A stretch of DNA of 64,000 nt. Origin: an uncultured Muribaculaceae bacterium. GTDB taxonomy: Bacteria > Bacillota_I > Bacilli_A > RF39 > UBA660. The DNA is taken from the NCBI GenBank assembly GCA_964545885.1, contig CAZJHG010000003.1, positions 1,474-65,473 on the forward strand. Direction: 5' to 3'. The notes under the pieces are model-generated. The model was not told where the DNA came from. It did not search any database and saw only the letters and a list, made by a program, of their open reading frames with translations. The position numbers were made by a program, and so were the translations under genes. Numbering within the stretch: position 1 is the first letter of the stretch; each line of letters opens with the position of its first letter. This document shows positions 15,076-33,126 of this stretch, piece after piece.

Positions 15076-15469
15076 AAGGTCTTAAGAATCCAAAATAACT
15101 TATATTTCTTAATATTCCAAAAATTATCGTTATCAATAACAATAGTATCCAAATAACATTAGGTATTCTTTTAATTATTTTATCTTCCTTATTCCAAATA
15201 TAAAGATATATTTTATAACTTACACAAACTCCTATAAAAGGCAATAACATAAAAACCAATTGATTATATCTAAATGCCTCATAGAAGTTTAAATTTAGTA
15301 ATGAGAATAAACATCTAGTTATTCCACACCCAGGACAATAATATCCAGTTATTTTATAAAAAATACAAGGAATACTAAAAGAATATTGATTGTTTAAATA
15401 ATAATATCCAATAAAGATAAATAAGCAAATACCTACTATAAATATAACTTTTTTAATTCTATCTTTCAT
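15074..15469 (-). CDS. DUF2752-family membrane protein
   Basis: CPGCGITR motif after the first TM segment, 4 TM segments, 131 aa. Its start overlaps the upstream stop (TAATG). Confidence 0.7.
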   Translation of the reverse strand: MKDRIKKVIFIVGICLFIFIGYYYLNNQYSFSIPCIFYKITGYYCPGCGITRCLFSLLNLNFYEAFRYNQLVFMLLPFIGVCVSYKIYLYIWNKEDKIIKRIPNVIWILLLLITIIFGILRNISYFGFLRP

Positions 15470-16077
15470 TATTGATTAGAAAACTTATTTAAATCACTTT
15501 GTAATAAGCAATAGTTAACAATTCCCAAACCAAATATTCCTAGTACTATGTATAAAACAGAATTATCTGAAATACCTTTACCATAATTTTGACCAGCTGT
15601 ATATAGTTTTTTTGCCATTTTGTAATACCAATAATAACCATAAATACCACATGTTAATAAAGTAAATAGAAATGCCATAATTCCAGAAGTATCTTCTGGT
15701 GTTCCAGCAGCTCTATTTATATCATCAGTTAATACAACAAACCAATATATACCATAAATACCACAAGTTAAAAGAGATAATAATATAGCTAATCCAACGT
15801 TTCTATTTTGAACACCTGGTGCTGCACCATAGTTACTATAGGCTCCTTGAGTACCTTGTTGATTAAAGTTAGGATTATAGTTTTGTTGAGTATTTTGTTG
15901 ATTAAAGTTAGGATTATAGTTTTGTTGAGTATTTTGTTGATTATAATTTTGATTAACGTTTTGTTGCATATTTGGTTGATTAACATTTTGTGCTAAAGGA
16001 GTACCACACCCCACACAAAAAGATGCATTTCCAACATTTTCCTTACCACAATTAGGACAACAATTATTCATCTTCAC
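15469..16077 (-). CDS. Zinc-ribbon / Q,N-rich / DUF4234-like membrane protein
   Basis: N-terminal CPNCG..CVGCG, a Q/N-rich linker with a duplicated NQQNTQQNYNPNF unit, and two TM hairpins with CGIYGIYWF / CGIYGYYWYY motifs. Confidence 0.7.
   Translation of the reverse strand: MKMNNCCPNCGKENVGNASFCVGCGTPLAQNVNQPNMQQNVNQNYNQQNTQQNYNPNFNQQNTQQNYNPNFNQQGTQGAYSNYGAAPGVQNRNVGLAILLSLLTCGIYGIYWFVVLTDDINRAAGTPEDTSGIMAFLFTLLTCGIYGYYWYYKMAKKLYTAGQNYGKGISDNSVLYIVLGIFGLGIVNYCLLQSDLNKFSNQ
15858..15943. repeat. Perfect 39-nt tandem duplication (2 units plus 8 nt) inside the Q/N-rich coding region
   Basis: gttgattaaagttaggattatagttttgttgagtatttt occurs at 15858-15896 and 15897-15935, and a third unit begins at 15936. 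Confidence 0.9.
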
Positions 16078-21838: not shown

Positions 21839-23686
21839 ATGAAAAAATTGAAGTATTTTATATTTAGTTTAGTTTGCTTATTAAGTTGTAATATAGTATT
21901 TGCAGCAAACGAAGTAGTAATCAAAAGTATAACTGCAGTATATGATGAAGAAAGTGACATTTTAGTATCAGAAAAAGATAACTTACATAGTGTTACTTTC
22001 AACGATAAGAATCAAAAGGTTGAATACAAAGTTATAATAGAAAATACAACTGATGGAGATATATCCATAGCTGATATTAACTTATCTACTCCAACAGAAG
22101 AGTTTTTAAATTATGATATTTCCGGTATTTTAAAAGATGATGTATTATCTGCAAATGAAACAAAGGAATTCATAGTATCACTAGAAACTATTCAAATGGA
22201 TGGTTGGGGACGTAACTTTAATGATGAACTCCTAACAAGTATAGAATTTGCAAATCATATGACTAATTCAGATGCAATAGATTTTATAGCTAATCCAGAT
22301 ACAATAGATTTTATAGTTTGTATTGTTGGTCTAGCAGTTATATCTGCTTTAGTTTATATATCAACAAAAAAATATAAACATGGGAAATATATAGTTTTAG
22401 TAATAGGATTGGTATCTTTACTACCTATGGTTAAAGCTAAGGATTCTATAACTTTAAGTTTTAAAATAAATGCTAGTTTTGAATCACAAAATATTATGGA
22501 GACGAGATTTGAAGAACCGAAAATTTTTAGTTTAGGTTATGGTCCACCTAACTTAGGTGGGAAAGATTGTTGGAAATATGATGGATATATAAAAAACATA
22601 TATATACAAAACGAATTTAATGAAATAAAAGATTATGTGTATAAATATGATATATCGGAGTCAAAAAATGAGAAAGTAATTGCCTATTTAGTAAGAAACG
22701 AAGAAAATAATAAATATTATGATTTATATTTACAAGCCGATGGTATTATATATGCAAATCAAGATTCTCGTGGTTATTTTGCAGGAATGCAAAACCTTGA
22801 TAATATTGATAATCTAACAGGATTAGACACAAGTAACGTTACTGATATGAGCGCAATGTTTTATAATACTGGGTATTATAGCGATGTTTTTGCTTTGGAT
22901 TTAAGTGGTTTTAATACAAGTAAAGCTCTTTCAATGGATGGAATGTTTAATAATACAGGTTACAACAATTCTAACTTTACATTAGACTTAAGTAATTTTG
23001 ACACAAGTAACGTAACTAATATGTCTTATATGTTTTGGGCAACAGGCTACAACAGTTCCCGCTTCACATTAGATTTAAGCAGTTTCAATACAAGCAATGT
23101 AACAGATATGTCTAGTATGTTTTTTGAAACAGGGCATAATAGTACAAACTTTACATTAGATTTAAGCAATTTCGATACAAGCAATGTAACAGATATGTCT
23201 TATATGTTTTATGCTACAGGAGACTACAGTTCTAACTTTACATTAGATTTAAGCAGTTTCAATACAAGCAATGTAACAAATATGTCTAGTATGTTTATTT
23301 GCACAGGATACAAGAGTTCCAACTTTACTTTAGACTTAAGTAACTTCGATACAAGTAACGTAACTAATATGAGTTATATGTTTGATTCAACAGGCTACAG
23401 CAGTTCCCGCTTCACATTAGATTTAAGCAATTTCAATACAAGTAATGTAACAAAGATGAGTGGAATGTTCTCTAATACAGGGCATAATAGTACAAATTTT
23501 AACACTTCTATAACCATAAGCAATCCTAATGTTACTGATTATTATAGCATGTTTTATGAAACGGCAACAAAAACTGGTTCCAAAATAACAGTAAACTACA
23601 CTAGTGCTACAAGTTCTTTGGTAGACAAAATGATTGCTACTAAATCATCAAATTCCAATGTCATAAAAGGTGTACAAGTAGATTAA
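21839..23686 (+). CDS. Surface protein: signal peptide, beta-sandwich-like domain, internal anchor/signal module, DUF285/BspA-type leucine-rich repeats
   Basis: Signal peptide MKKLKYFIFSLVCLLSCNIVFA. About 9 repeats of the FTLDLSNFDTSNVTNMSYMF..TGY type. Two internal hydrophobic segments at aa 157-198. Confidence 0.85.
   Translation: MKKLKYFIFSLVCLLSCNIVFAANEVVIKSITAVYDEESDILVSEKDNLHSVTFNDKNQKVEYKVIIENTTDGDISIADINLSTPTEEFLNYDISGILKDDVLSANETKEFIVSLETIQMDGWGRNFNDELLTSIEFANHMTNSDAIDFIANPDTIDFIVCIVGLAVISALVYISTKKYKHGKYIVLVIGLVSLLPMVKAKDSITLSFKINASFESQNIMETRFEEPKIFSLGYGPPNLGGKDCWKYDGYIKNIYIQNEFNEIKDYVYKYDISESKNEKVIAYLVRNEENNKYYDLYLQADGIIYANQDSRGYFAGMQNLDNIDNLTGLDTSNVTDMSAMFYNTGYYSDVFALDLSGFNTSKALSMDGMFNNTGYNNSNFTLDLSNFDTSNVTNMSYMFWATGYNSSRFTLDLSSFNTSNVTDMSSMFFETGHNSTNFTLDLSNFDTSNVTDMSYMFYATGDYSSNFTLDLSSFNTSNVTNMSSMFICTGYKSSNFTLDLSNFDTSNVTNMSYMFDSTGYSSSRFTLDLSNFNTSNVTKMSGMFSNTGHNSTNFNTSITISNPNVTDYYSMFYETATKTGSKITVNYTSATSSLVDKMIATKSSNSNVIKGVQVD
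22802..23497 (+). repeat. Tandem 87-nt (29-aa) coding repeats with a 174-nt higher-order period
   Basis: Unit starts at 22802, 22889, 22976, 23063, 23150, 23237, 23324 and 23411. Alternate units pair up (SNFDTSNVT.MSYMF versus SSFNTSNVT.MSSMF). Confidence 0.9.
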
Positions 23687-23804: not shown

Positions 23805-24419
23805 ATGCAAAGAAAATACATATATTTATTAGTTATAGTCTTAACCATAGTTCTTGTTGTATACAATCATTTTATCGGCTTGTCATCTACTAAGCCATCC
23901 GTAGAATTAGACAATAGCCCAGTTATTGAAGAAACTCAAAAGAATACTGAAGTTAAATATAATTTAAAAATAGATAATTATCAAAATGATGAAAAAGATA
24001 TAATCTATTCATATAAAATAACTATTCCTGAAATATCAGGAGCATATAAATATAGTAAAAATAACGAAGAATCATATTTAATATTTACTGCCAATGGTGA
24101 AGCAGAAGTAACTTTAAATAGTAATGATTCTTTAACAATCTATGAACTACCAGAAGGAATAAAATATAAGATAGAACAGATTACTGACGTAAGTGAAAAA
24201 TATACAACTAAGACCGATGAAACAAATGGAACAATTATTGAAGGAATTATCAGCGAAACTAACAATATTAAATTTACTAACGAAACAATTATTTCAGAAG
24301 AACCAGTAAAGAAAAATCCGTTCACTAGTGACAATCACTACTTAGCATTATTCGTTTTCATATATGCCGTAATTATAAGTATAGTAGCAACTAGAATAAA
24401 AGTTAAAAGGTTTGAATAA
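23805..24419 (+). CDS. Small pilin-like / Cna-B-like surface protein with C-terminal NPFTSD-TM-basic tail
   Basis: N-terminal signal or anchor. The core ANGEAEVTLNSNDSLTIYELPEGIKYKIEQ...YTT...IKFTNE resembles the Gram-positive pilin/Cna-B domain pattern. C-terminal tripartite signal. Confidence 0.6.
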   Translation: MQRKYIYLLVIVLTIVLVVYNHFIGLSSTKPSVELDNSPVIEETQKNTEVKYNLKIDNYQNDEKDIIYSYKITIPEISGAYKYSKNNEESYLIFTANGEAEVTLNSNDSLTIYELPEGIKYKIEQITDVSEKYTTKTDETNGTIIEGIISETNNIKFTNETIISEEPVKKNPFTSDNHYLALFVFIYAVIISIVATRIKVKRFE

Positions 24420-24497: not shown

Positions 24498-25001
24498 ATG
24501 AAAAAACAAATACATATTATCCAAGGAATAATTATACTTCTTATAATATTTATAGCATTATTAATATCAATAAAATTTATTTACAAAATAAATAATGAAC
24601 AAGTAGATACATCATATATGTGGAATATTAATTTAACAAACTTAAAAATTACAGAAGGAAGTATAGAAGGTACAACAAAGTTAGAAAATAATACATTAAC
24701 TACTGAAGTAACTTTAAAGAAAGAAAAAGAATATTATGAATTTACTTTTGATATAGAAAATACAGGTACTTTAGATGCTATAATAGACAACATTAATTTA
24801 TTTGTAGACAATAAAAAAAATATTCTAACTTATAAAGTATCATATCTAGATGGCACATCACTAAATAAAGGAGATGTCTTAAAATCTAACACCAATAAAA
24901 CTATCTTAGTACGAATAGATTATCCTAAACAAACAAATAAAATATATGATGAATTAACTCTAAAAATAACATTAAGCTTAATATATAAAGCAATTTATTA
25001 A
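24498..25001 (+). CDS. Small N-terminally anchored protein, paralogous to the N-terminal domain of the 21839 protein
   Basis: EYYEFTFDIENTGTLDAIIDNINLF..ILTYKVS..GDVLKSNTNKTILV parallels VEYKVIIENTTDGDISIADINLS..FLNYDIS..DDVLSANETKEFIV. Confidence 0.6.
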   Translation: MKKQIHIIQGIIILLIIFIALLISIKFIYKINNEQVDTSYMWNINLTNLKITEGSIEGTTKLENNTLTTEVTLKKEKEYYEFTFDIENTGTLDAIIDNINLFVDNKKNILTYKVSYLDGTSLNKGDVLKSNTNKTILVRIDYPKQTNKIYDELTLKITLSLIYKAIY

Positions 25002-25060: not shown

Positions 25061-26203
25061 ATGAAACAAAGTATTAGTAAAAATATTAAAAGTACTATGT
25101 TAATACTTGAAATTATAGTATTTATTTATATAATATCTATCTTTATATTTAAAGATTATATAAGTACATTAATAAATCCTCTTAATGTGGCTTTTTTCAT
25201 GTTATTAACTTTTTTTTCAATATTATTACTCGGCTTTAAAAAAGCAAAAAAAAGTAAACTAAAAACTAAAATTAATAACATTTTTATAATAGTATCATCT
25301 GTATATTTAATAAGTATCTATTTATTAGGAAATGCTACTGGTTTTTATAATAATTCTTTTAGTATAAGTAATACTATATATCTTGTTTTATATTTAGTAT
25401 TAAGTGAAATATTTAGATATATCTTTATATCAAAATGTAATAAAACTACTAGTAATCAATATATAATGACCTTTTTATATGTATTATTTGATTTATTAGT
25501 TATCTCATCTTTAGGGCCTACTAATATTATAAAAATAACTGATATATTATCTCTAACATTTATCTCTTTAATAAAAAATTCTCTACTAAGTTATACAACA
25601 TATAAATATGGATATAAATCGTGTTATATATATTCTTTTATAATAGGCTTAATGCCTATAATTGCTCCAATATATCCTGATTTAAGCAATTATATTAATG
25701 TAGTATTCTCTCTAACTTATTCAGCTATTATTTTCTATAATATAAGTAAACCAAATAGAAAAGAAGAGGAAGAAACAGCAAACACTTATAAAAAGAATAT
25801 CTTATTTTATTTAGAAAGAGTTCTTTTAGTATTTATTATAATAATAATATTTTTAGTATCGGGCAATTTCAAGTATTCAATATCAGCTGTAGCATCTGAT
25901 TCTATGTATCCATATTTAAAAAAAGGTGATGCTATTATTCTTGAAAGAGTAGATGAAAAAAACCAAAATGAATTAATAAAAGGTGATGTAGTAGCATTTG
26001 AACAAGACGGAAAAATAGTAATTCATAGGATATTAACTATCGATACAATAGATGGTGAAGATTATATAACAACAAAAGGTGATAATAATAACACAAAAGA
26101 TGTACAAAAAAAGACAAAAGATGATATAATAGGAATAGTAAGATATAGGATTCCGTATATAGGCTATCCATCTATAGAAATATCTGAAACAAAGAATAAA
26201 TAA
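25061..26203 (+). CDS. SipW/Sec11-type (Ser-His) signal peptidase I fused to an N-terminal ~8-TM domain
   Basis: C-terminal ~135 aa carry SDSMYPYLKKGD (catalytic Ser box), VIHRIL (His box) and TKGDNN. The N-terminal ~245 aa are strongly hydrophobic with about 8 helices. Confidence 0.75.
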   Translation: MKQSISKNIKSTMLILEIIVFIYIISIFIFKDYISTLINPLNVAFFMLLTFFSILLLGFKKAKKSKLKTKINNIFIIVSSVYLISIYLLGNATGFYNNSFSISNTIYLVLYLVLSEIFRYIFISKCNKTTSNQYIMTFLYVLFDLLVISSLGPTNIIKITDILSLTFISLIKNSLLSYTTYKYGYKSCYIYSFIIGLMPIIAPIYPDLSNYINVVFSLTYSAIIFYNISKPNRKEEEETANTYKKNILFYLERVLLVFIIIIIFLVSGNFKYSISAVASDSMYPYLKKGDAIILERVDEKNQNELIKGDVVAFEQDGKIVIHRILTIDTIDGEDYITTKGDNNNTKDVQKKTKDDIIGIVRYRIPYIGYPSIEISETKNK

Positions 26204-26215
26204 GGAGTATGGGGT

Positions 26216-27145
26216 ATGAATAACAAAAAAACAATAACAATTTGCTCAATTATTGCTCTAGTAGTTCTTGCTATAGTTATAATAATTACCTTGATGTCTG
26301 ACTTAGTTGGCTTCAGTATCATATTAGGAACTCTATTTATAATTTTAACAGTTTGTCTAGGTATATATTTAAGAGAAGAACCTGATGAATATAGTTTATT
26401 TATAAAGAATAAAAAAAGGATTTTAAGAACTTACGATTCAATTATTGTTGAAGTAGAAGATATCCCTAATATAGCTGGTAAAAATATAATTAAAGTTAAA
26501 TCAATAGAGGATCTTGTAGATGCTCAATTAGAACTTAGAGAACCAATATATTATAAGAATGATAATGATTCTTGCTTCTTTATGTTATTACATTATAATG
26601 AAGCTTGTATATATATATTGAAAATGAATAGTGGAGTAGTATCACCAACTGAACAATCAATAAGGTATATGAAAGAAGATAAAGAAAGTAAGGAAACTTC
26701 TAATATTTTGGATAATGTTGAGAATACAATTGTATATAAGTTAGATGAACTAAGAAGTTTTAAAATTTCTCCAATTAGAAGTGAGCAAAAAATAGAAGTA
26801 ATCGATGATACTGCAATAAAAGAAGAGTTAGAAGAAGCCAAAGAACATCACATTACTAAAGAAACATTAGAAGATGAAATATCTAAGACAATGTATATCA
26901 ACGACTTAAAAGAAAAAATAAGACAGTTTGAAGAGGAAGAACTAGAAAAGGAAAGAGCTATTTCTAATACTCAAGAAATAAAAATAATTCCAGAAGAAAA
27001 AGTTAAGAGTAAGAAAAAAGAAACTGTTGTTAAAAACACAAAATCAACTACAGCTCAAACAAAGAAGACAACTAAAAAGAGTTCTACTCCTAAAAAAGTT
27101 ACTCACCAAACAAGACGTACTAGTAAGTATCAAAATAAAAAGTAA
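26216..27145 (+). CDS. Membrane protein with two N-terminal TM segments, a globular domain and a highly basic K/T-rich tail
   Basis: 309 aa starting 13 nt after the peptidase gene. The tail is KVKSKKKETVVKNTKSTTAQTKKTTKKSSTPKK. Confidence 0.6.
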   Translation: MNNKKTITICSIIALVVLAIVIIITLMSDLVGFSIILGTLFIILTVCLGIYLREEPDEYSLFIKNKKRILRTYDSIIVEVEDIPNIAGKNIIKVKSIEDLVDAQLELREPIYYKNDNDSCFFMLLHYNEACIYILKMNSGVVSPTEQSIRYMKEDKESKETSNILDNVENTIVYKLDELRSFKISPIRSEQKIEVIDDTAIKEELEEAKEHHITKETLEDEISKTMYINDLKEKIRQFEEEELEKERAISNTQEIKIIPEEKVKSKKKETVVKNTKSTTAQTKKTTKKSSTPKKVTHQTRRTSKYQNKK

Positions 27146-27333: not shown

Positions 27334-28053
27334 ATGAAAAAGAAATATTTTATGATAGCAGTGATAATCTTACTAACAATAATAAGCGCTATCACAGTAG
27401 TTAAAGTTATCACTGACTTAAAAAAAGAAACTAAAATAAAAAATGAAGTACAAAAAATAATTGAGATATTAGAATCAGACACAATAGATAAAACAGAATT
27501 GATAGATATATTAGATAGAAGAGTAGTTACTAAAGGCAACTATGTAGAAGTAGAAAACAGCATTAAATTATATTATAAAGATTTATATGATGATATAAGT
27601 AATCTAACATTTTTAATAAATGAAGATAATTATTCTAATTATTTAACGTCAGCTAATTTAAAAGAAGACAGACCAAATTTTATAAAATCTAAAGATAATC
27701 TTCAAAATACCGAAGCTCAAATTAACGAAGTATATACAGAATTAACTAATCAATTAACTGATAAATCAATAATTATGTCATATATAATAGATAAGGATGT
27801 TAAAACATATTACAAGGATTTTTATTATACTTTAGTAAAAGATTATATATCTGAAAATTGGCAAGAAGATTTATCTAGTAAAAAAAATATTACTTTAAAA
27901 ATAATTCAAACATATAATGAAGCATTAGATTTTCTAGTAGCTAACAAAGGTCATTGGAAACTTAATAACGATTTAATAACTTTTGATGATACAACTTTAT
28001 ATGAGGAATATTTATTAATAACAGGTAAACTAAAAGAAGCTAGTGATAATTAG
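27334..28053 (+). CDS. Hypothetical N-terminally anchored protein
   Basis: GGAGG RBS 8 nt before ATG 27334 (MKKKYFMIAVIILL...). The ORF-track start 27274 is an upstream extension through the hairpin. Confidence 0.6.
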   Translation: MKKKYFMIAVIILLTIISAITVVKVITDLKKETKIKNEVQKIIEILESDTIDKTELIDILDRRVVTKGNYVEVENSIKLYYKDLYDDISNLTFLINEDNYSNYLTSANLKEDRPNFIKSKDNLQNTEAQINEVYTELTNQLTDKSIIMSYIIDKDVKTYYKDFYYTLVKDYISENWQEDLSSKKNITLKIIQTYNEALDFLVANKGHWKLNNDLITFDDTTLYEEYLLITGKLKEASDN

Positions 28054-28059
28054 CTTCTT

Positions 28060-28590
28060 TTAAAATTCTATTTTAATTTCTTTGGTATCAAATCTAAGTG
28101 GTTCAATAGGCTTATAGTCGAACAAGTATGCCATCAAATTAGTAGGGAATGTCTGAATCTTAGTATTATATTTATTTATATCCGTAGAATAAATTCTTCT
28201 AGCAGCTTCGATTTCACTTTCTACTTTAGATAGTTCATTTTGTAAATTTAAATATAGTTCACTAGCTTTCAAATCAGGATATTTTTCTACTAAAGAAATA
28301 CATTTATTATAGTAAGAATTTAATTTATCTCTATCATCAGCACTACCTGTTTCTTCAAAACTATTTCGAAGTTTAACTATTTCCTCTAGTGTTTCCTTTT
28401 CATGCCTACTATAAGCTTTAACGCATTCTACTAAGTTAGGTATCAAATCAAATCTCTTTTTTAAATAAATATCTACTAAGGAACTAGCTCTTTCTACTTT
28501 TTTATAAGACCTTACTAAAGAATTATATATTAATATAAATATTACAATAAATATTAGTAAGACTATTAAACACCATACAAATATATCCAT
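28060..28590 (-). CDS. lemA: LemA-family protein
   Basis: One N-terminal TM segment, then YNSLV..VE..SLVDIYLKKRFDLIPNLVECVKAYSRHEKETLEEI, the LemA signature. GAGAGG RBS before ATG 28590. Confidence 0.85.
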   Translation of the reverse strand: MDIFVWCLIVLLIFIVIFILIYNSLVRSYKKVERASSLVDIYLKKRFDLIPNLVECVKAYSRHEKETLEEIVKLRNSFEETGSADDRDKLNSYYNKCISLVEKYPDLKASELYLNLQNELSKVESEIEAARRIYSTDINKYNTKIQTFPTNLMAYLFDYKPIEPLRFDTKEIKIEF

Positions 28591-28594
28591 ATTA

Positions 28595-29647
28595 TTACCT
28601 CTCAATTTCATCTAATTTATTTATTATTTCTTCTATAATTTCAGTCATACCATCTAACATTTTAAAATAGTAAGCAATACTTAAAGCTTCTTTTTTTATG
28701 TCGTTTGGATGTGGTTCAAATAATGAATCGCTATGGAACCTAAAAAATAACAATCCTTTAATTAATCTAAATTCATAAAAATAACCAAAATTATTATATA
28801 ATTCTAATATTTTATTTGTTAAAGACGGAGTCAATATTCTAAGTGCAGTAATCTTATCGGAAGTAAAAACATCATATTTTTCTTCAAATAGTTGATTATC
28901 TAATTCTACATAGTCTTTTTTATCAAATAATTTTAATTTATCAGTTGCAATAATTAATGAAAAGTCATTAAACTTATTAAGTTCTATAACTGCAACCGGT
29001 CCAAAAAATAATGTACGGCTAGAAGAATTACCATCACTATCAGTAGATTCTCTTTCTGTATGAACATCTGATAGTGAAAACTTATATCCCAAAATATTTC
29101 CAGTTATCAAGTCTTCAGAGCGATAATCACTATACCCCTCAAAATTACCAATTTTATATATTTGAGAAGAAATCCCTTCATTCGGATTATATTGCCACTC
29201 ACTATTATAATTTTTTATAACTGCTTTTATTATTTGTTCTCTATATACTTTTGAATAATTAGCTGATGATACTGCCTTCCAAATAAGTGAGAAAATAAAT
29301 GTAGTCCAACACGCAGCAAATAAAACAATCCAATCATAAAATAATAAAGATATCTCAATTACAATAATAAATATAATGAATATATATAAATTTATTCTTT
29401 TGTGTTTCTTTCTCTTTTTATCTAACACTTGATTATTAGTCAGAATATTTATATAATTTTGAATATCATATTGTTTTTCTTTCAGTACTTCATTATATAT
29501 TTTTTCTTTAGCTTTTTTTGAAGCTTTTGCTTCCTTAACCAACTTTACAATATCATAAATAAAGAATACAAGCCACGCTATCGTAACGAAAGATTGAAAT
29601 AAAAAAACTCCTAAATTATCAAAACTCATATACCACCAAATTTCCAA
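28595..29647 (-). CDS. DUF3137-like membrane protein (LemA partner)
   Basis: TM segments, then YREQIIKAVIKNY..W.YNP..GIS...EDLITG..GYKFSLSDV...FFGPV. The family assignment is from memory. Its stop lies 4 nt before the lemA start. Confidence 0.55.
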   Translation of the reverse strand: MEIWWYMSFDNLGVFLFQSFVTIAWLVFFIYDIVKLVKEAKASKKAKEKIYNEVLKEKQYDIQNYINILTNNQVLDKKRKKHKRINLYIFIIFIIVIEISLLFYDWIVLFAACWTTFIFSLIWKAVSSANYSKVYREQIIKAVIKNYNSEWQYNPNEGISSQIYKIGNFEGYSDYRSEDLITGNILGYKFSLSDVHTERESTDSDGNSSSRTLFFGPVAVIELNKFNDFSLIIATDKLKLFDKKDYVELDNQLFEEKYDVFTSDKITALRILTPSLTNKILELYNNFGYFYEFRLIKGLLFFRFHSDSLFEPHPNDIKKEALSIAYYFKMLDGMTEIIEEIINKLDEIER

Positions 29648-31011: not shown

Positions 31012-33126
31012 ATGAAAAAGTATAAGAAAAGTATTTTATTTTTACTATTTATTTTAATACCTTTTGTGGTTTCAGCTCGTAATTTGGAAGATCTAGAATT
31101 AAAATGGACTGATGAAATAGAAGATGATGGTTATATTTTTAATCCAGTTACTGAGTTGGATCCTAAATATGCAGAATATAATCATGGATATAATGAAAGT
31201 AAATTTATCGAAACAGATGAAGGTTATCTTATTATAGGTAATTCTAGCTTTAATTTGTATGATAGAAACAAGGGATTAGTTAAATCAGTTAGTGCTGGTT
31301 ATAATCATCAATATATTGAGGATGGAAATAATTATATAGTAATTGGCAAAAATTATGATAATTATTCTGCTAACATTAAAATAGTAACATCTGAGTTAGA
31401 TGTTCTTGCTGAATATGATTTTTCTATGTGTTCGATTTTTAATTTTTTTATTAAAGATGATTCTTTGGTTGTTGTTTATGAAGAGTGTGATAGTGATGGT
31501 TATTATTTAAATTCACTAGTTTTAGAAAAAGAAACATTAAAAGAAAAACATTCTTCAAAAATCTTTACTTTGAAAACTACTTATAATTACTTTTATGAGG
31601 CTAAAATATATAGAGACGATTATTATAATTATTACTATTTAGATAAAGATTTTAATATTGTACCAGATAATTTGAATGATGATAGTTCTTATTTTATCTC
31701 TGATGATAATTATTTGTACTTGTTTGATAAAAGCGGGAAAGAGTTGAAGTCAATTAATATTGAGCTGTCAGATAATTATTCGCGTTACTATTGGGATAAA
31801 ACTCCTGTAAGAAAGTATAATAATTTTTATTATGTTTTTAGCAATGAATATAAGTATGATGCAGTAACAAAAAAATATTTACATAGAGTTGTATATTATA
31901 AATATGACAATGATTTTAGATTAGTTGATACTAAAATTTTAACAGGTGAACCTACGAGTAGGAGTGATTCTTATAATGCTAGGTTATATTTAAATAAAAA
32001 AGGTTTATTTATTTACTATAGTTATAATAATCAATACTATAAAATAGAAGATGATTTTAGTTTTACAACTTCAGATAGTTCGTACATGTATGACGAAATA
32101 GAAAAAAATATTGATTACCCGAATGTACCAAAAATTAATAATCAATTAAATGCTTATTTTATGGTTTATGAATATCTTGATGCTCTTGCTTCTGATAAAG
32201 AAGAAAAGTTAGAAAAAGATTTAAGCGATAATGATAATGCATATATTTCTTTTTCATATGATACATATTATGATGAAGATAACGAACAATTAATAATAGC
32301 TGTTACTTGGTTAGAAGAATTATATATAAATGGAAATTACACAGATTATACTGAAGCAGAACTAATTTACTTAGATGAAGAAAATTATGAATCACCAACA
32401 ATAGTTACTTTAGTTGAAAGGTCAAAATATACTGGTTCAAATTATCTTTATACTGAAAATATTGGCGCGAAGATGTATGTTGATGAAGATAATATCATCG
32501 TTGCTCTTAGCTTAGGCAATAAAATAATGACTAATATCTATGATAGAGAAGGAAAACTAATTAAAACACTATCTGAGAAAAAAATTAAAGGACTGTCACC
32601 TCAAATGGTTAGTTATAATGCTGGAAGATTACTTGTCATTTTTAGTATGTATCCAGAACCAGTGGCTCCAAATAATAATTCAGTTAACTTTACTGGTAAT
32701 ATTACTAATTTTATACCAGATGCTAAATTGACTGTGTATATTCCAGGTATAGATGGTGTTGCTTCATACTCATATATTGAATATTATGAAACACCATTTA
32801 ATATTACAATTAAGACAGATGGTAATGGAACAATAGAGTCTACTAAAGTAAAAGCATCATCTGGAGATGAAATTAAATTTACTATAACACCTAAAGAAGG
32901 ATATGTTCTTAGCGTAGTTAAAGTAACTGATTCTAGTGGTAATGTTGTAACATTTAAAGACAATACGTTTACAATGCCTTCATCAGATGTAACAATTGAG
33001 GCTACATTTGTACCAGAAAACCCTAATACTGTAGATGCTGCAATAATAGCTAGTATTGCAGTAATCATCTGTGGTAGCATAGGTATTATTTATAGCATAA
33101 GAAAAATTAAATGGTTAAATATTTAA
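31012..33126 (+). CDS. Large Y/N/D-rich surface protein with a divergent InlB-B-repeat-like domain and a C-terminal NPNTVD-TM-basic tail
   Basis: Signal peptide. The segment ITIKTDGNGTIESTKVKASSGDEIKFTITPKEGYVLSVVKV..TFTMPSSDVTIEATF resembles the Flg_new_2 pattern. C-terminal tripartite signal. Confidence 0.75.
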   Translation: MKKYKKSILFLLFILIPFVVSARNLEDLELKWTDEIEDDGYIFNPVTELDPKYAEYNHGYNESKFIETDEGYLIIGNSSFNLYDRNKGLVKSVSAGYNHQYIEDGNNYIVIGKNYDNYSANIKIVTSELDVLAEYDFSMCSIFNFFIKDDSLVVVYEECDSDGYYLNSLVLEKETLKEKHSSKIFTLKTTYNYFYEAKIYRDDYYNYYYLDKDFNIVPDNLNDDSSYFISDDNYLYLFDKSGKELKSINIELSDNYSRYYWDKTPVRKYNNFYYVFSNEYKYDAVTKKYLHRVVYYKYDNDFRLVDTKILTGEPTSRSDSYNARLYLNKKGLFIYYSYNNQYYKIEDDFSFTTSDSSYMYDEIEKNIDYPNVPKINNQLNAYFMVYEYLDALASDKEEKLEKDLSDNDNAYISFSYDTYYDEDNEQLIIAVTWLEELYINGNYTDYTEAELIYLDEENYESPTIVTLVERSKYTGSNYLYTENIGAKMYVDEDNIIVALSLGNKIMTNIYDREGKLIKTLSEKKIKGLSPQMVSYNAGRLLVIFSMYPEPVAPNNNSVNFTGNITNFIPDAKLTVYIPGIDGVASYSYIEYYETPFNITIKTDGNGTIESTKVKASSGDEIKFTITPKEGYVLSVVKVTDSSGNVVTFKDNTFTMPSSDVTIEATFVPENPNTVDAAIIASIAVIICGSIGIIYSIRKIKWLNI

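Follow-up and report, generated by a model that had tools for sequence, protein, structure and literature searches.

We analyzed a 64-kb stretch of contig CAZJHG010000003.1 from an uncultured bacterium (the whole stretch is called the window below), focusing on a gene at positions 25061 to 26203 whose product joins a polytopic N-terminal domain to a signal peptidase of the endoplasmic reticulum (ER)/archaeal type. The gene lies between those for a small β-sandwich protein and a DUF5305-family protein, and the best reading places it in the family of polytopic signal peptidases associated with AbpX. The genes and their parts are as follows.

24498..25001, + strand: small protein, 167 amino acids, with a long N-terminal signal anchor and a β-sandwich; putative subunit of the AbpX/TasA superfamily
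25061..26203, + strand: fusion gene, polytopic N-terminal domain plus ER/archaeal-type signal peptidase I (380-amino-acid open reading frame [ORF], homologues, hidden Markov model [HMM] matches, AlphaFold2 [AF2] model)
25061..25795, + strand: N-terminal domain (N-domain), residues 1 to 245, eight transmembrane (TM) helices, predicted CPBP/Rce1-like fold (AF2, Foldseek)
25799..25861, + strand: the peptidase's own TM anchor helix, residues 247 to 267 (AF2 secondary structure, hydropathy)
25862..26200, + strand: S26B-type catalytic domain, predicted to be extracytoplasmic, with Ser281, His322, Asp341, and Asp347 (TIGR02228, Foldseek, conservation)
26216..27145, + strand: DUF5305-family protein, 309 amino acids, putative peptidase accessory subunit (PF17231)

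The fusion is a single reading frame and belongs to a broad family

The 380 amino acids of the fusion protein are encoded in one uninterrupted frame. The motifs SEIFRY, SDSMYP, VIHRIL, and TKGDNN start at residues 115, 279, 320, and 338, respectively; the last three are the boxes by which a preliminary description of this locus had recognized an ER/archaeal-type Ser-His peptidase. H322 is the sole histidine of the protein, and residues 1 to 245 contain none. A whole-protein search returned more than 120 full-length homologues of 370 to 390 amino acids, with identities down to ~30%. In a set of 1.84 billion representatives, a profile of the N-domain matched 1590 clusters (50% identity) at E ≤ 1e-3, of which 374 remain at E ≤ 1e-30. 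Lengths were ~370 to 390 amino acids in nearly all of the best 150 of the 1590 clusters, and nearly all of the N-domain matches listed were ~375 to 390 amino acids long; thus, the fused form is the rule. The few shorter matches stop abruptly, and one 812-amino-acid match (P0187) is an apparent chimeric gene call in which the N-domain and the start of the peptidase are followed by a metallophosphoesterase. The family is common in gut Bacilli and in Firmicutes metagenome-assembled genomes (MAGs), where its members are annotated merely as “signal peptidase I.” That the fusion is an artifact of a missed stop codon or a frameshift is hardly credible: the frame is uninterrupted, and independent full-length homologues of this length number in the hundreds, which excludes both errors. 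The fusion that the preliminary description had reported is genuine.

An alignment of 34 sequences underlies the AF2 model, whose mean predicted local distance difference test (pLDDT) score is 84.5, with ~90 in the N-domain. The model lays the protein out as eight TM helices, a cytoplasmic linker, the anchor helix (residues 247 to 267), and a β-rich catalytic domain. The positive-inside pattern suggests that the N terminus is cytoplasmic and that the catalytic domain lies outside.

The C-terminal module carries an intact Ser-His active site

The C-terminal part matched TIGR02228 (archaeal/ER-type signal peptidase I) with 87.1 bits over residues 244 to 371, against a cutoff of 51.85 bits, and also passed the thresholds of Pfam Peptidase_S26 and S24. 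The SipW equivalog model NF046067 gave 61.5 bits against a cutoff of 190; therefore, the comparison with Bacillus subtilis SipW that had been drawn earlier holds for the Ser-His type of the enzyme, but the fusion is SipW-like and no SipW orthologue. The Ser-His pair (with His replacing the bacterial Lys) and the Asp residues of the GDN box place the module in class S26B. Ser281 (codon 25901-25903), His322 (codon 26024-26026) with R323, D341, and D347 are invariant in the closer alignment and 96 to 99% conserved in ~136 representatives (S281 in 135/138, H322 in 131/136, D341 in 133/135, and D347 in 134/136). A Foldseek search of the Protein Data Bank (PDB) with the catalytic domain returned human SEC11A as the best match (7p2p_A; E = 7e-5) and also Streptococcus pyogenes SipA (4n31; E = 7e-4). 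By these signatures, residues ~247 to 380 are an ER/archaeal-type (Ser281-His322) signal peptidase I with intact catalytic residues.

The fusion gene sits in a conserved three-gene cassette

We compared 18 loci: six were obtained via exact look-ups of distant homologues, and the other twelve lie in genomes of species labeled Candidatus Coprovivens, uncultured Bacilli, “Tenericutes,” or Erysipelotrichaceae (individual loci are given below by L numbers). The genes follow the order small N-anchored β-sandwich protein, fusion, DUF5305: a DUF5305 gene lies directly downstream of the fusion in 18/18 loci, usually with a gap of 0 to 25 bp, and a 166- to 212-amino-acid N-anchored protein lies upstream wherever the locus has an upstream flank. 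The cassette is kept, again with gaps of 0 to 25 bp, where the fusions are only 30 to 33% identical to that of the window and the flanking contexts are unrelated. In the window, 59 bp separate the small-protein gene from the fusion and 12 bp separate the fusion from the DUF5305 gene, a spacing that looks like that of an operon. The preliminary description had assigned each neighbor its own promoter and terminator. Promoter-like matches in the window are not above chance (49 observed versus 56 expected), and the scan found no terminator-like site on the + strand between 22349 and 28030, the next starting at 28031; therefore, that assignment is not supported.

The downstream protein matched PF17231 with 42 bits (cutoff, 29 bits) over model positions 121 to 209 only, which identifies it as the DUF5305 member of the cassette. 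It has two adjacent TM helices (residues 3 to 54), a cytoplasmic domain, and a basic tail, and its ectodomain is missing. The DUF5305 proteins of the window's clade (26216-27145 in the window, 11069-12163 in L013, and 11087-12121 in L016) align with the Pfam model over its C-terminal half only and bear a long Lys-rich tail (isoelectric point [pI], ~10). An extracellular part of ~200 amino acids, present in L001, L003, L005, and L006, is missing from this clade.

The small upstream protein is a likely relative of AbpX and TasA

The AF2 model of the small protein (pLDDT, 87.6) shows an N-terminal helix (residues 2 to 32), a linker, and an eight-strand sandwich. A word-indexed search found no Pfam domain in any of 783 members of its family, and its profile matched nothing among PDB sequences. 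In distant loci, the small proteins share a junction, G-[YF]-A|[AS]-x-S-x-T-L, and a core, L-K-x-P-G-D...F-x-x-x-N-x-G-T-L-x-A, both of which resemble AbpX (TYA|QWSETL...; FTLENVGTIPA), whose sequence was taken from the supplement of 10.64898/2026.01.04.697558. A profile of this distant subfamily matched AbpX with 20 bits (E = 2e-8 for a single comparison) and ~145 columns in register, and it matched the small protein of the window with 33.8 bits; a BLASTP comparison of the L003 small protein with AbpX gave an E value of 0.21. Weak matches to Peptidase_M73 (TasA/camelysin) occur in 12/22 family members. The mature small protein is acidic, as are AbpX-type subunits (pI, 5.5; 13% Asp plus Glu), and a basic N terminus, M-x-K, is conserved among the subunits. 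These sequence links make membership of the family in the AbpX/TasA superfamily likely, though not proven.

The N-terminal domain resembles an inactivated CAAX-type protease

The eight or so TM helices that had been noted ahead of the peptidase anchor, with no histidine and no recognizable motif, are borne out by the AF2 model and the sequence. Residues 1 to 245 gave no match in Pfam or NCBIfam even at E ≤ 10, no Pfam match at that threshold was found for the domain in any of 26 members of the family, and the N-domain profile returned only noise from PDB sequences. Among 151 representatives, E116 (codon 25406-25408) and R119 (codon 25415-25417), both in TM4, are present in 151/151, and G90, G94, Y191, P203, P206, and Y211 are 89 to 99% conserved. 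Position 144 is Asp or Glu in 134/151 and N173 is kept in 123/151, all inside TM helices. R192 is found in 107/151 and E/D196 in 104/151, where the window's clade has Ser and Gly. No His or Cys is conserved in the N-domain of these representatives.

In a Foldseek search of the PDB, the N-domain aligned with SpdC (6u0o_A; probability, 0.99; TM-score, 0.58 normalized to SpdC; 252 columns) and with Rce1 (4cad; probability, 0.87 to 0.91; TM-score, 0.49 to 0.54), and no other membrane fold came near it. On the predicted model, it thus has the eight-TM, Rce1-like arrangement, with Foldseek E values of 0.14 to 0.5. The CPBP motifs EExxxR, FxxxH, and HxxxN/D are not present in the N-domain. In their stead are E116-x-x-R119 in TM4, F140-x-x-x-[DE]144 in TM5, and, in part, R192-x-x-x-[ED]196 in TM7, and both CPBP histidines are lost. 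We take the Rce1 motifs EExxxR, FxxxH, and HxxxN to sit on the corresponding helices (TM4, TM5, and TM7 by helix order). A regular-expression search found no separate CPBP gene in the window or the loci. As to whether the N-domain belongs to a well-characterized family, then, the predicted fold resembles CPBP/Rce1 and SpdC, but there is no sequence match to PF02517. Judged from the model, the N-domain looks like an inactivated CAAX-type protease whose fold is nearest to CPBP/Rce1 and whose best match is the inactive scaffold SpdC.

A proposed dedicated peptidase with a built-in scaffold

We read the fusion protein as a two-module membrane enzyme for a TasA/AbpX-type fiber cassette, combining a dedicated signal peptidase with a built-in noncatalytic scaffold or regulator, and we put the probability of this reading at about 60%. 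The peptidase module, tethered by a TM helix of its own, would lie outside the membrane and would most likely remove the long signal anchor of the upstream small β-sandwich protein, perhaps also acting on other proteins of the locus. We infer that removal of the anchor would free the N-terminal strand of the small protein for donor-strand polymerization into a fiber. The N-domain, lacking both catalytic histidines, would most likely pack on the TM helix of the peptidase as a scaffold or regulator, where it may limit or steer the access of signal anchors to the active site and may dock the DUF5305 protein. Of the docking or translocation module proposed in the preliminary description, a scaffolding or docking function is thus what we would retain; what that description observed at this gene is confirmed, and its interpretation is partly supported.

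The closest known system speaks against the description of the locus as a candidate novel assembly system. In the abpX loci of Bacillota and archaea, a “ten-TM” signal peptidase I is encoded together with an “SPase I accessory” protein of the DUF5305 family (Sleutel et al., bioRxiv 10.64898/2026.01.04.697558, January 2026). This accessory protein combines a β-sandwich with two TM helices and a domain in the cytoplasm; it is at times fused to the peptidase, and it recalls the eukaryotic complex (10.64898/2026.01.04.697558). The peptidase of the abpX loci, like that of the window, is of the TIGR02228 type, has many extra TM helices, and adjoins DUF5305 and an AbpX-like subunit of the TasA superfamily, a putative one in the window. 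Since both this cassette and its polytopic peptidase have already been noted in the preprint, novelty of the assembly system is not supported. The preprint does not mention CAAX or CPBP and gives no fold or role for the extra helices (10.64898/2026.01.04.697558); assigning a fold to this domain and linking it to SpbR-SpsB, as described next, are modest, testable insights. The window's clade departs from the abpX loci in its ectodomain-less DUF5305, in a subunit that lacks the canonical cleavage junction, and in having DUF7601 partners with NPxT anchors where the abpX loci have LPXTG or SLH anchors. The reading bears on how dedicated signal peptidases choose fiber subunits and on the role of the extra helices of AbpX peptidases. 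A CPBP-like pseudoprotease in this position would join two separate recent observations, the ten-TM abpX peptidase and SpbR-SpsB, and the window, from an uncultured gut lineage, contributes a reduced form of the cassette.

In Staphylococcus aureus, the polytopic protein SpbR is CAAX-like, with motifs that are degenerate (HELYMR, FIYLD, and QIVAI) and no protease role; it binds the signal peptidase SpsB in a 1:1 complex via its TM5, TM7, and outer loop and modulates cleavage (PMC12260438). The window shares with this pair a degenerate CAAX/CPBP-like polytopic part associated with a type I signal peptidase, and the N-domain, like SpbR with its xE...R and FxxxD-type motifs, has degenerate motifs on TM4 (ExxR) and TM5 (F-x-x-x-D/E), a likeness drawn from the described motifs. 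SpbR is a separate protein that inhibits a Ser-Lys (bacterial P-type) enzyme, whereas the module of the window is fused to a Ser-His peptidase. By analogy, the fusion would be a covalent equivalent of SpbR-SpsB and functionally akin to the accessory subunits of the eukaryotic complex, and TM5, TM7, and the outer-loop residues P203-P206-Y211 are candidates for contact with the peptidase helix or domain. SpdC (LyrA; SagB-SpdC complex) and Rce1, eight-TM bundles both, are the best structural matches to residues 1 to 245, and SpdC is a noncatalytic scaffold for an extracytoplasmic hydrolase; the N-domain has neither detectable sequence similarity to the two nor the CPBP motifs.

Other systems share single features with the locus. 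In the B. subtilis tapA-sipW-tasA operon, a Ser-His ER-type peptidase is dedicated to a donor-strand fiber subunit of the same operon, much as we propose for the window, but SipW has no polytopic N-domain, and the locus in the window has DUF5305 in place of TapA. In haloarchaeal Tafi loci, DUF5305 (TafG) pairs with the peptidase TafD, and deletion of tafD blocks subunit processing (PMC11821415). These loci place a dedicated signal peptidase and DUF5305 beside donor-strand fiber subunits, as the window may do; however, TafD, a peptidase of four TM helices, differs in its second domain, and the Tafi subunits are Tat substrates. The eukaryotic signal peptidase complex (SEC11, SPC22/23, SPC25, and SPC12; 7p2p) likewise carries out catalysis within a multihelix assembly with accessory parts; in the window, the accessory helices are part of the peptidase chain itself and are CPBP-like in fold, and their likeness to SPC12/SPC25 is offered as an analogy. 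S. pyogenes SipA/LepA (4n31), to which the preliminary description had pointed, resembles the window peptidase as a signal peptidase fold tied to a surface fiber locus. This analogy is weak: SipA is an inactive factor that lacks the catalytic residues and works with sortases in pilus assembly, whereas the catalytic residues are intact here, and the window shows no sortase by motif search and has NPxTxD in place of LPXTG tails, unlike a sortase-pilus (FCT/SipA-type) locus.

A bolder version of the scaffold reading, tentative and on balance rather improbable, makes the N-domain a repurposed CPBP-fold intramembrane receptor that would bind the long anchors of fiber subunits via Glu116/Arg119 and hand them to the peptidase and DUF5305. 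In a speculative form of the contact, E116 and R119, which lie in the cytoplasmic half of TM4 at the opening of the Rce1 cavity, would bind the basic M-x-K N terminus of the subunits. If this were true, the fusion would be a single-chain counterpart, in bacteria and archaea, of the multisubunit eukaryotic signal peptidase complex, and partnerships of CPBP pseudoproteases with signal peptidases like SpbR-SpsB would be ancient and widespread beyond staphylococci.

Several results weigh against the reading as a peptidase with a CPBP-like scaffold that serves an AbpX-type subunit. The CPBP relation comes from one Foldseek search with a predicted model (E = 0.14; TM-score, ~0.58). An hhalign comparison of the N-domain with 37 genuine PF02517 proteins gave a probability of 0.4%, and hmmsearch between the N-domain and CPBP returned noise in both directions, with inconsistent registers. 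(A CPBP consensus sequence of our own invention matched only cytochrome b-245 noise among PDB sequences and then served to gather the real PF02517 proteins.) As a control, the same CPBP profile recovers Rce1 (E = 1.4e-6) and misses SpdC; since it misses even SpdC, the negative sequence test is compatible with remote ancestry. The spacing of ExxR in the N-domain is unlike that of EExxxR, and the invariant intramembrane pair E116 and R119 could signify chemistry beyond structure. The abpX peptidase is described with ten TM helices and our model has nine, the two being likened by description. For the small protein, Foldseek returned generic β-sandwiches and an archaeal pilin, with no match to TasA or AbpX, and hhalign of its family with thin alignments gave 1.9% for AbpX as a single sequence and 13.9% for three M73-like proteins. 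Finally, the G-[YF]-A|[AS] junction of AbpX and of the distant relatives is missing from the small proteins of the window's clade; thus, the cleavage site, or cleavage itself, is uncertain there. In this region (residues 25 to 45), they have a 5-residue deletion and a conserved DTSYMWNI.

Three other readings are less well supported. The N-domain might be an active, His-independent intramembrane hydrolase or transferase, for example, one that clears anchors in the manner of signal peptide peptidase or one that cleaves NPxTxD-TM-basic anchors in the manner of a sortase or myxosortase. The residues kept within its TM helices (E116 and R119 in 151/151, an acidic 144 in 134/151, and N173 in 123/151) are in line with this; CPBP-fold enzymes (myxosortases) serve as C-terminal sorting proteases, and NPxT-TM-basic tails are found on three proteins of the window and on DUF7601 orthologues, with no sortase found by motif search of the window. 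We nevertheless consider an active N-domain unlikely, as the two catalytic histidines of CPBP enzymes are missing throughout the family, the window's clade lacks R192 and E196 as well, and none of the degenerate CPBP homologues SpbR, SpdC, and LnsB is catalytic. Moreover, the NPxT tails are confined to the window's clade and are not found beside the distant fusion homologues (L001 to L006); therefore, they do not co-vary with the N-domain, and we rejected a sorting enzyme for NPxTxD-TM-basic tails as the principal explanation.

Somewhat more doubtful is the view that, in the window's clade, the small protein is an uncleaved peptidase subunit like SPC22/23 that replaces the lost ectodomain of DUF5305, the substrates being other proteins such as DUF7601. 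The missing junction, with DTSYMWNI in its place, agrees with this, as do the two adjacent TM helices and absent ectodomain of the clade's DUF5305. A weak match to SPC22 in Pfam (E = 0.016, in 1/22 family members) points the same way, but it is at noise level, the small protein is homologous by profile to a cleavable 198-amino-acid subfamily and to AbpX, and its mature part is acidic like AbpX-type subunits. Least probable of the three is a housekeeping signal peptidase of a reduced genome, with the polytopic domain as a mere anchor and the synteny without functional meaning. A host of low GC content (~26%) from a Candidatus Coprovivens-like Bacilli lineage, often binned as “Tenericutes,” would fit such an enzyme, as would the lack of any second signal peptidase seen in the 64-kb window. 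However, the three-gene order is kept at only 30% protein identity amid unrelated flanks, TasA, Tafi, and AbpX loci as a rule have a dedicated peptidase, and a plain anchor would have no need of invariant polar residues.

Neighboring genes

Three further genes around the cassette are as follows.

21839..23686, + strand: DUF285/PARCEL-repeat surface protein, outside the conserved cassette (PF03382, 183 bits)
23805..24419, + strand: DUF7601 surface protein with a C-terminal NPFTSD, TM helix, and basic tail (PF24547, 48.9 bits)
27334..28053, + strand: N-anchored 239-amino-acid protein, conserved downstream in the window's clade (blastp)

The neighbors of the fusion are secreted or anchored proteins, as had been described, and can now be named more precisely as DUF285/PARCEL, DUF7601, an eight-strand sandwich, and DUF5305. 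Conservation with the fusion holds for the small protein and DUF5305 but not for the DUF285 protein, which has a homologue near the fusion in 0/18 loci. The DUF7601 gene is conserved in the window's clade only, where the orthologues in L007 and L009 to L014 bear the same tail; its product is possibly a membrane anchor or a minor component. The 239-amino-acid protein has blastp matches in L007, L008, L009, L011, and L012. A hairpin at 28031-28062, just after its gene, is the only terminator-like site on the + strand downstream of the cassette; it lies between the cassette and a convergent pair of LemA (138 bits) and DUF3137 genes (28060-29647, − strand).

In the more distant loci, large secreted proteins and Peptidase_M73 (TasA/camelysin) genes are found as well. 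Extra TasA/camelysin-like genes of this kind stand beside the cassette at 12356-13849 in L003 and 5914-7252 in L005, and one M73-like gene of a distant locus has a clear signal peptide of the SipW-cognate type (TIGR04088; E = 3e-7). These extra genes suggest that such a locus encodes several fiber subunits.

Three proteins of the window carry NPxTxD followed by ~20 hydrophobic residues and a basic cluster: NPDTID at 22292-22393 (inside the ORF at 21839-23686), NPFTSD at 24315-24419, and NPNTVD at 33019-33126. The same tail is found on all DUF7601 orthologues and on 500-amino-acid Flg_new_2 (InlB B-repeat) proteins in L011 and L012, and it resembles either a sorting signal or a fixed anchor in the membrane. 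In the DUF285/PARCEL protein, NPDT, the TM segment, and KKYKHGK are internal (residues 152 to 185), with a second hydrophobic, signal-like segment right after; the arrangement is that of a helical-hairpin anchor with an outside domain on either side, or else of two genes fused long ago. A motif search of the window, made without an HMM scan of every ORF, found no sortase, and the tails are NPxTxD and not LPXTG. A 200-amino-acid protein with TLLTC/SLLTC (TLxTC-type) motifs (15469-16071, − strand) proved to be not a sortase but a zinc ribbon plus DUF4234. The GC content of the window is very low, at 22 to 34% and mostly ~26%, and the window probably stems from a gut lineage with a reduced genome, like the nearest relatives of the locus, which are gut MAGs of Candidatus Coprovivens, uncultured Bacilli, or “Tenericutes.”

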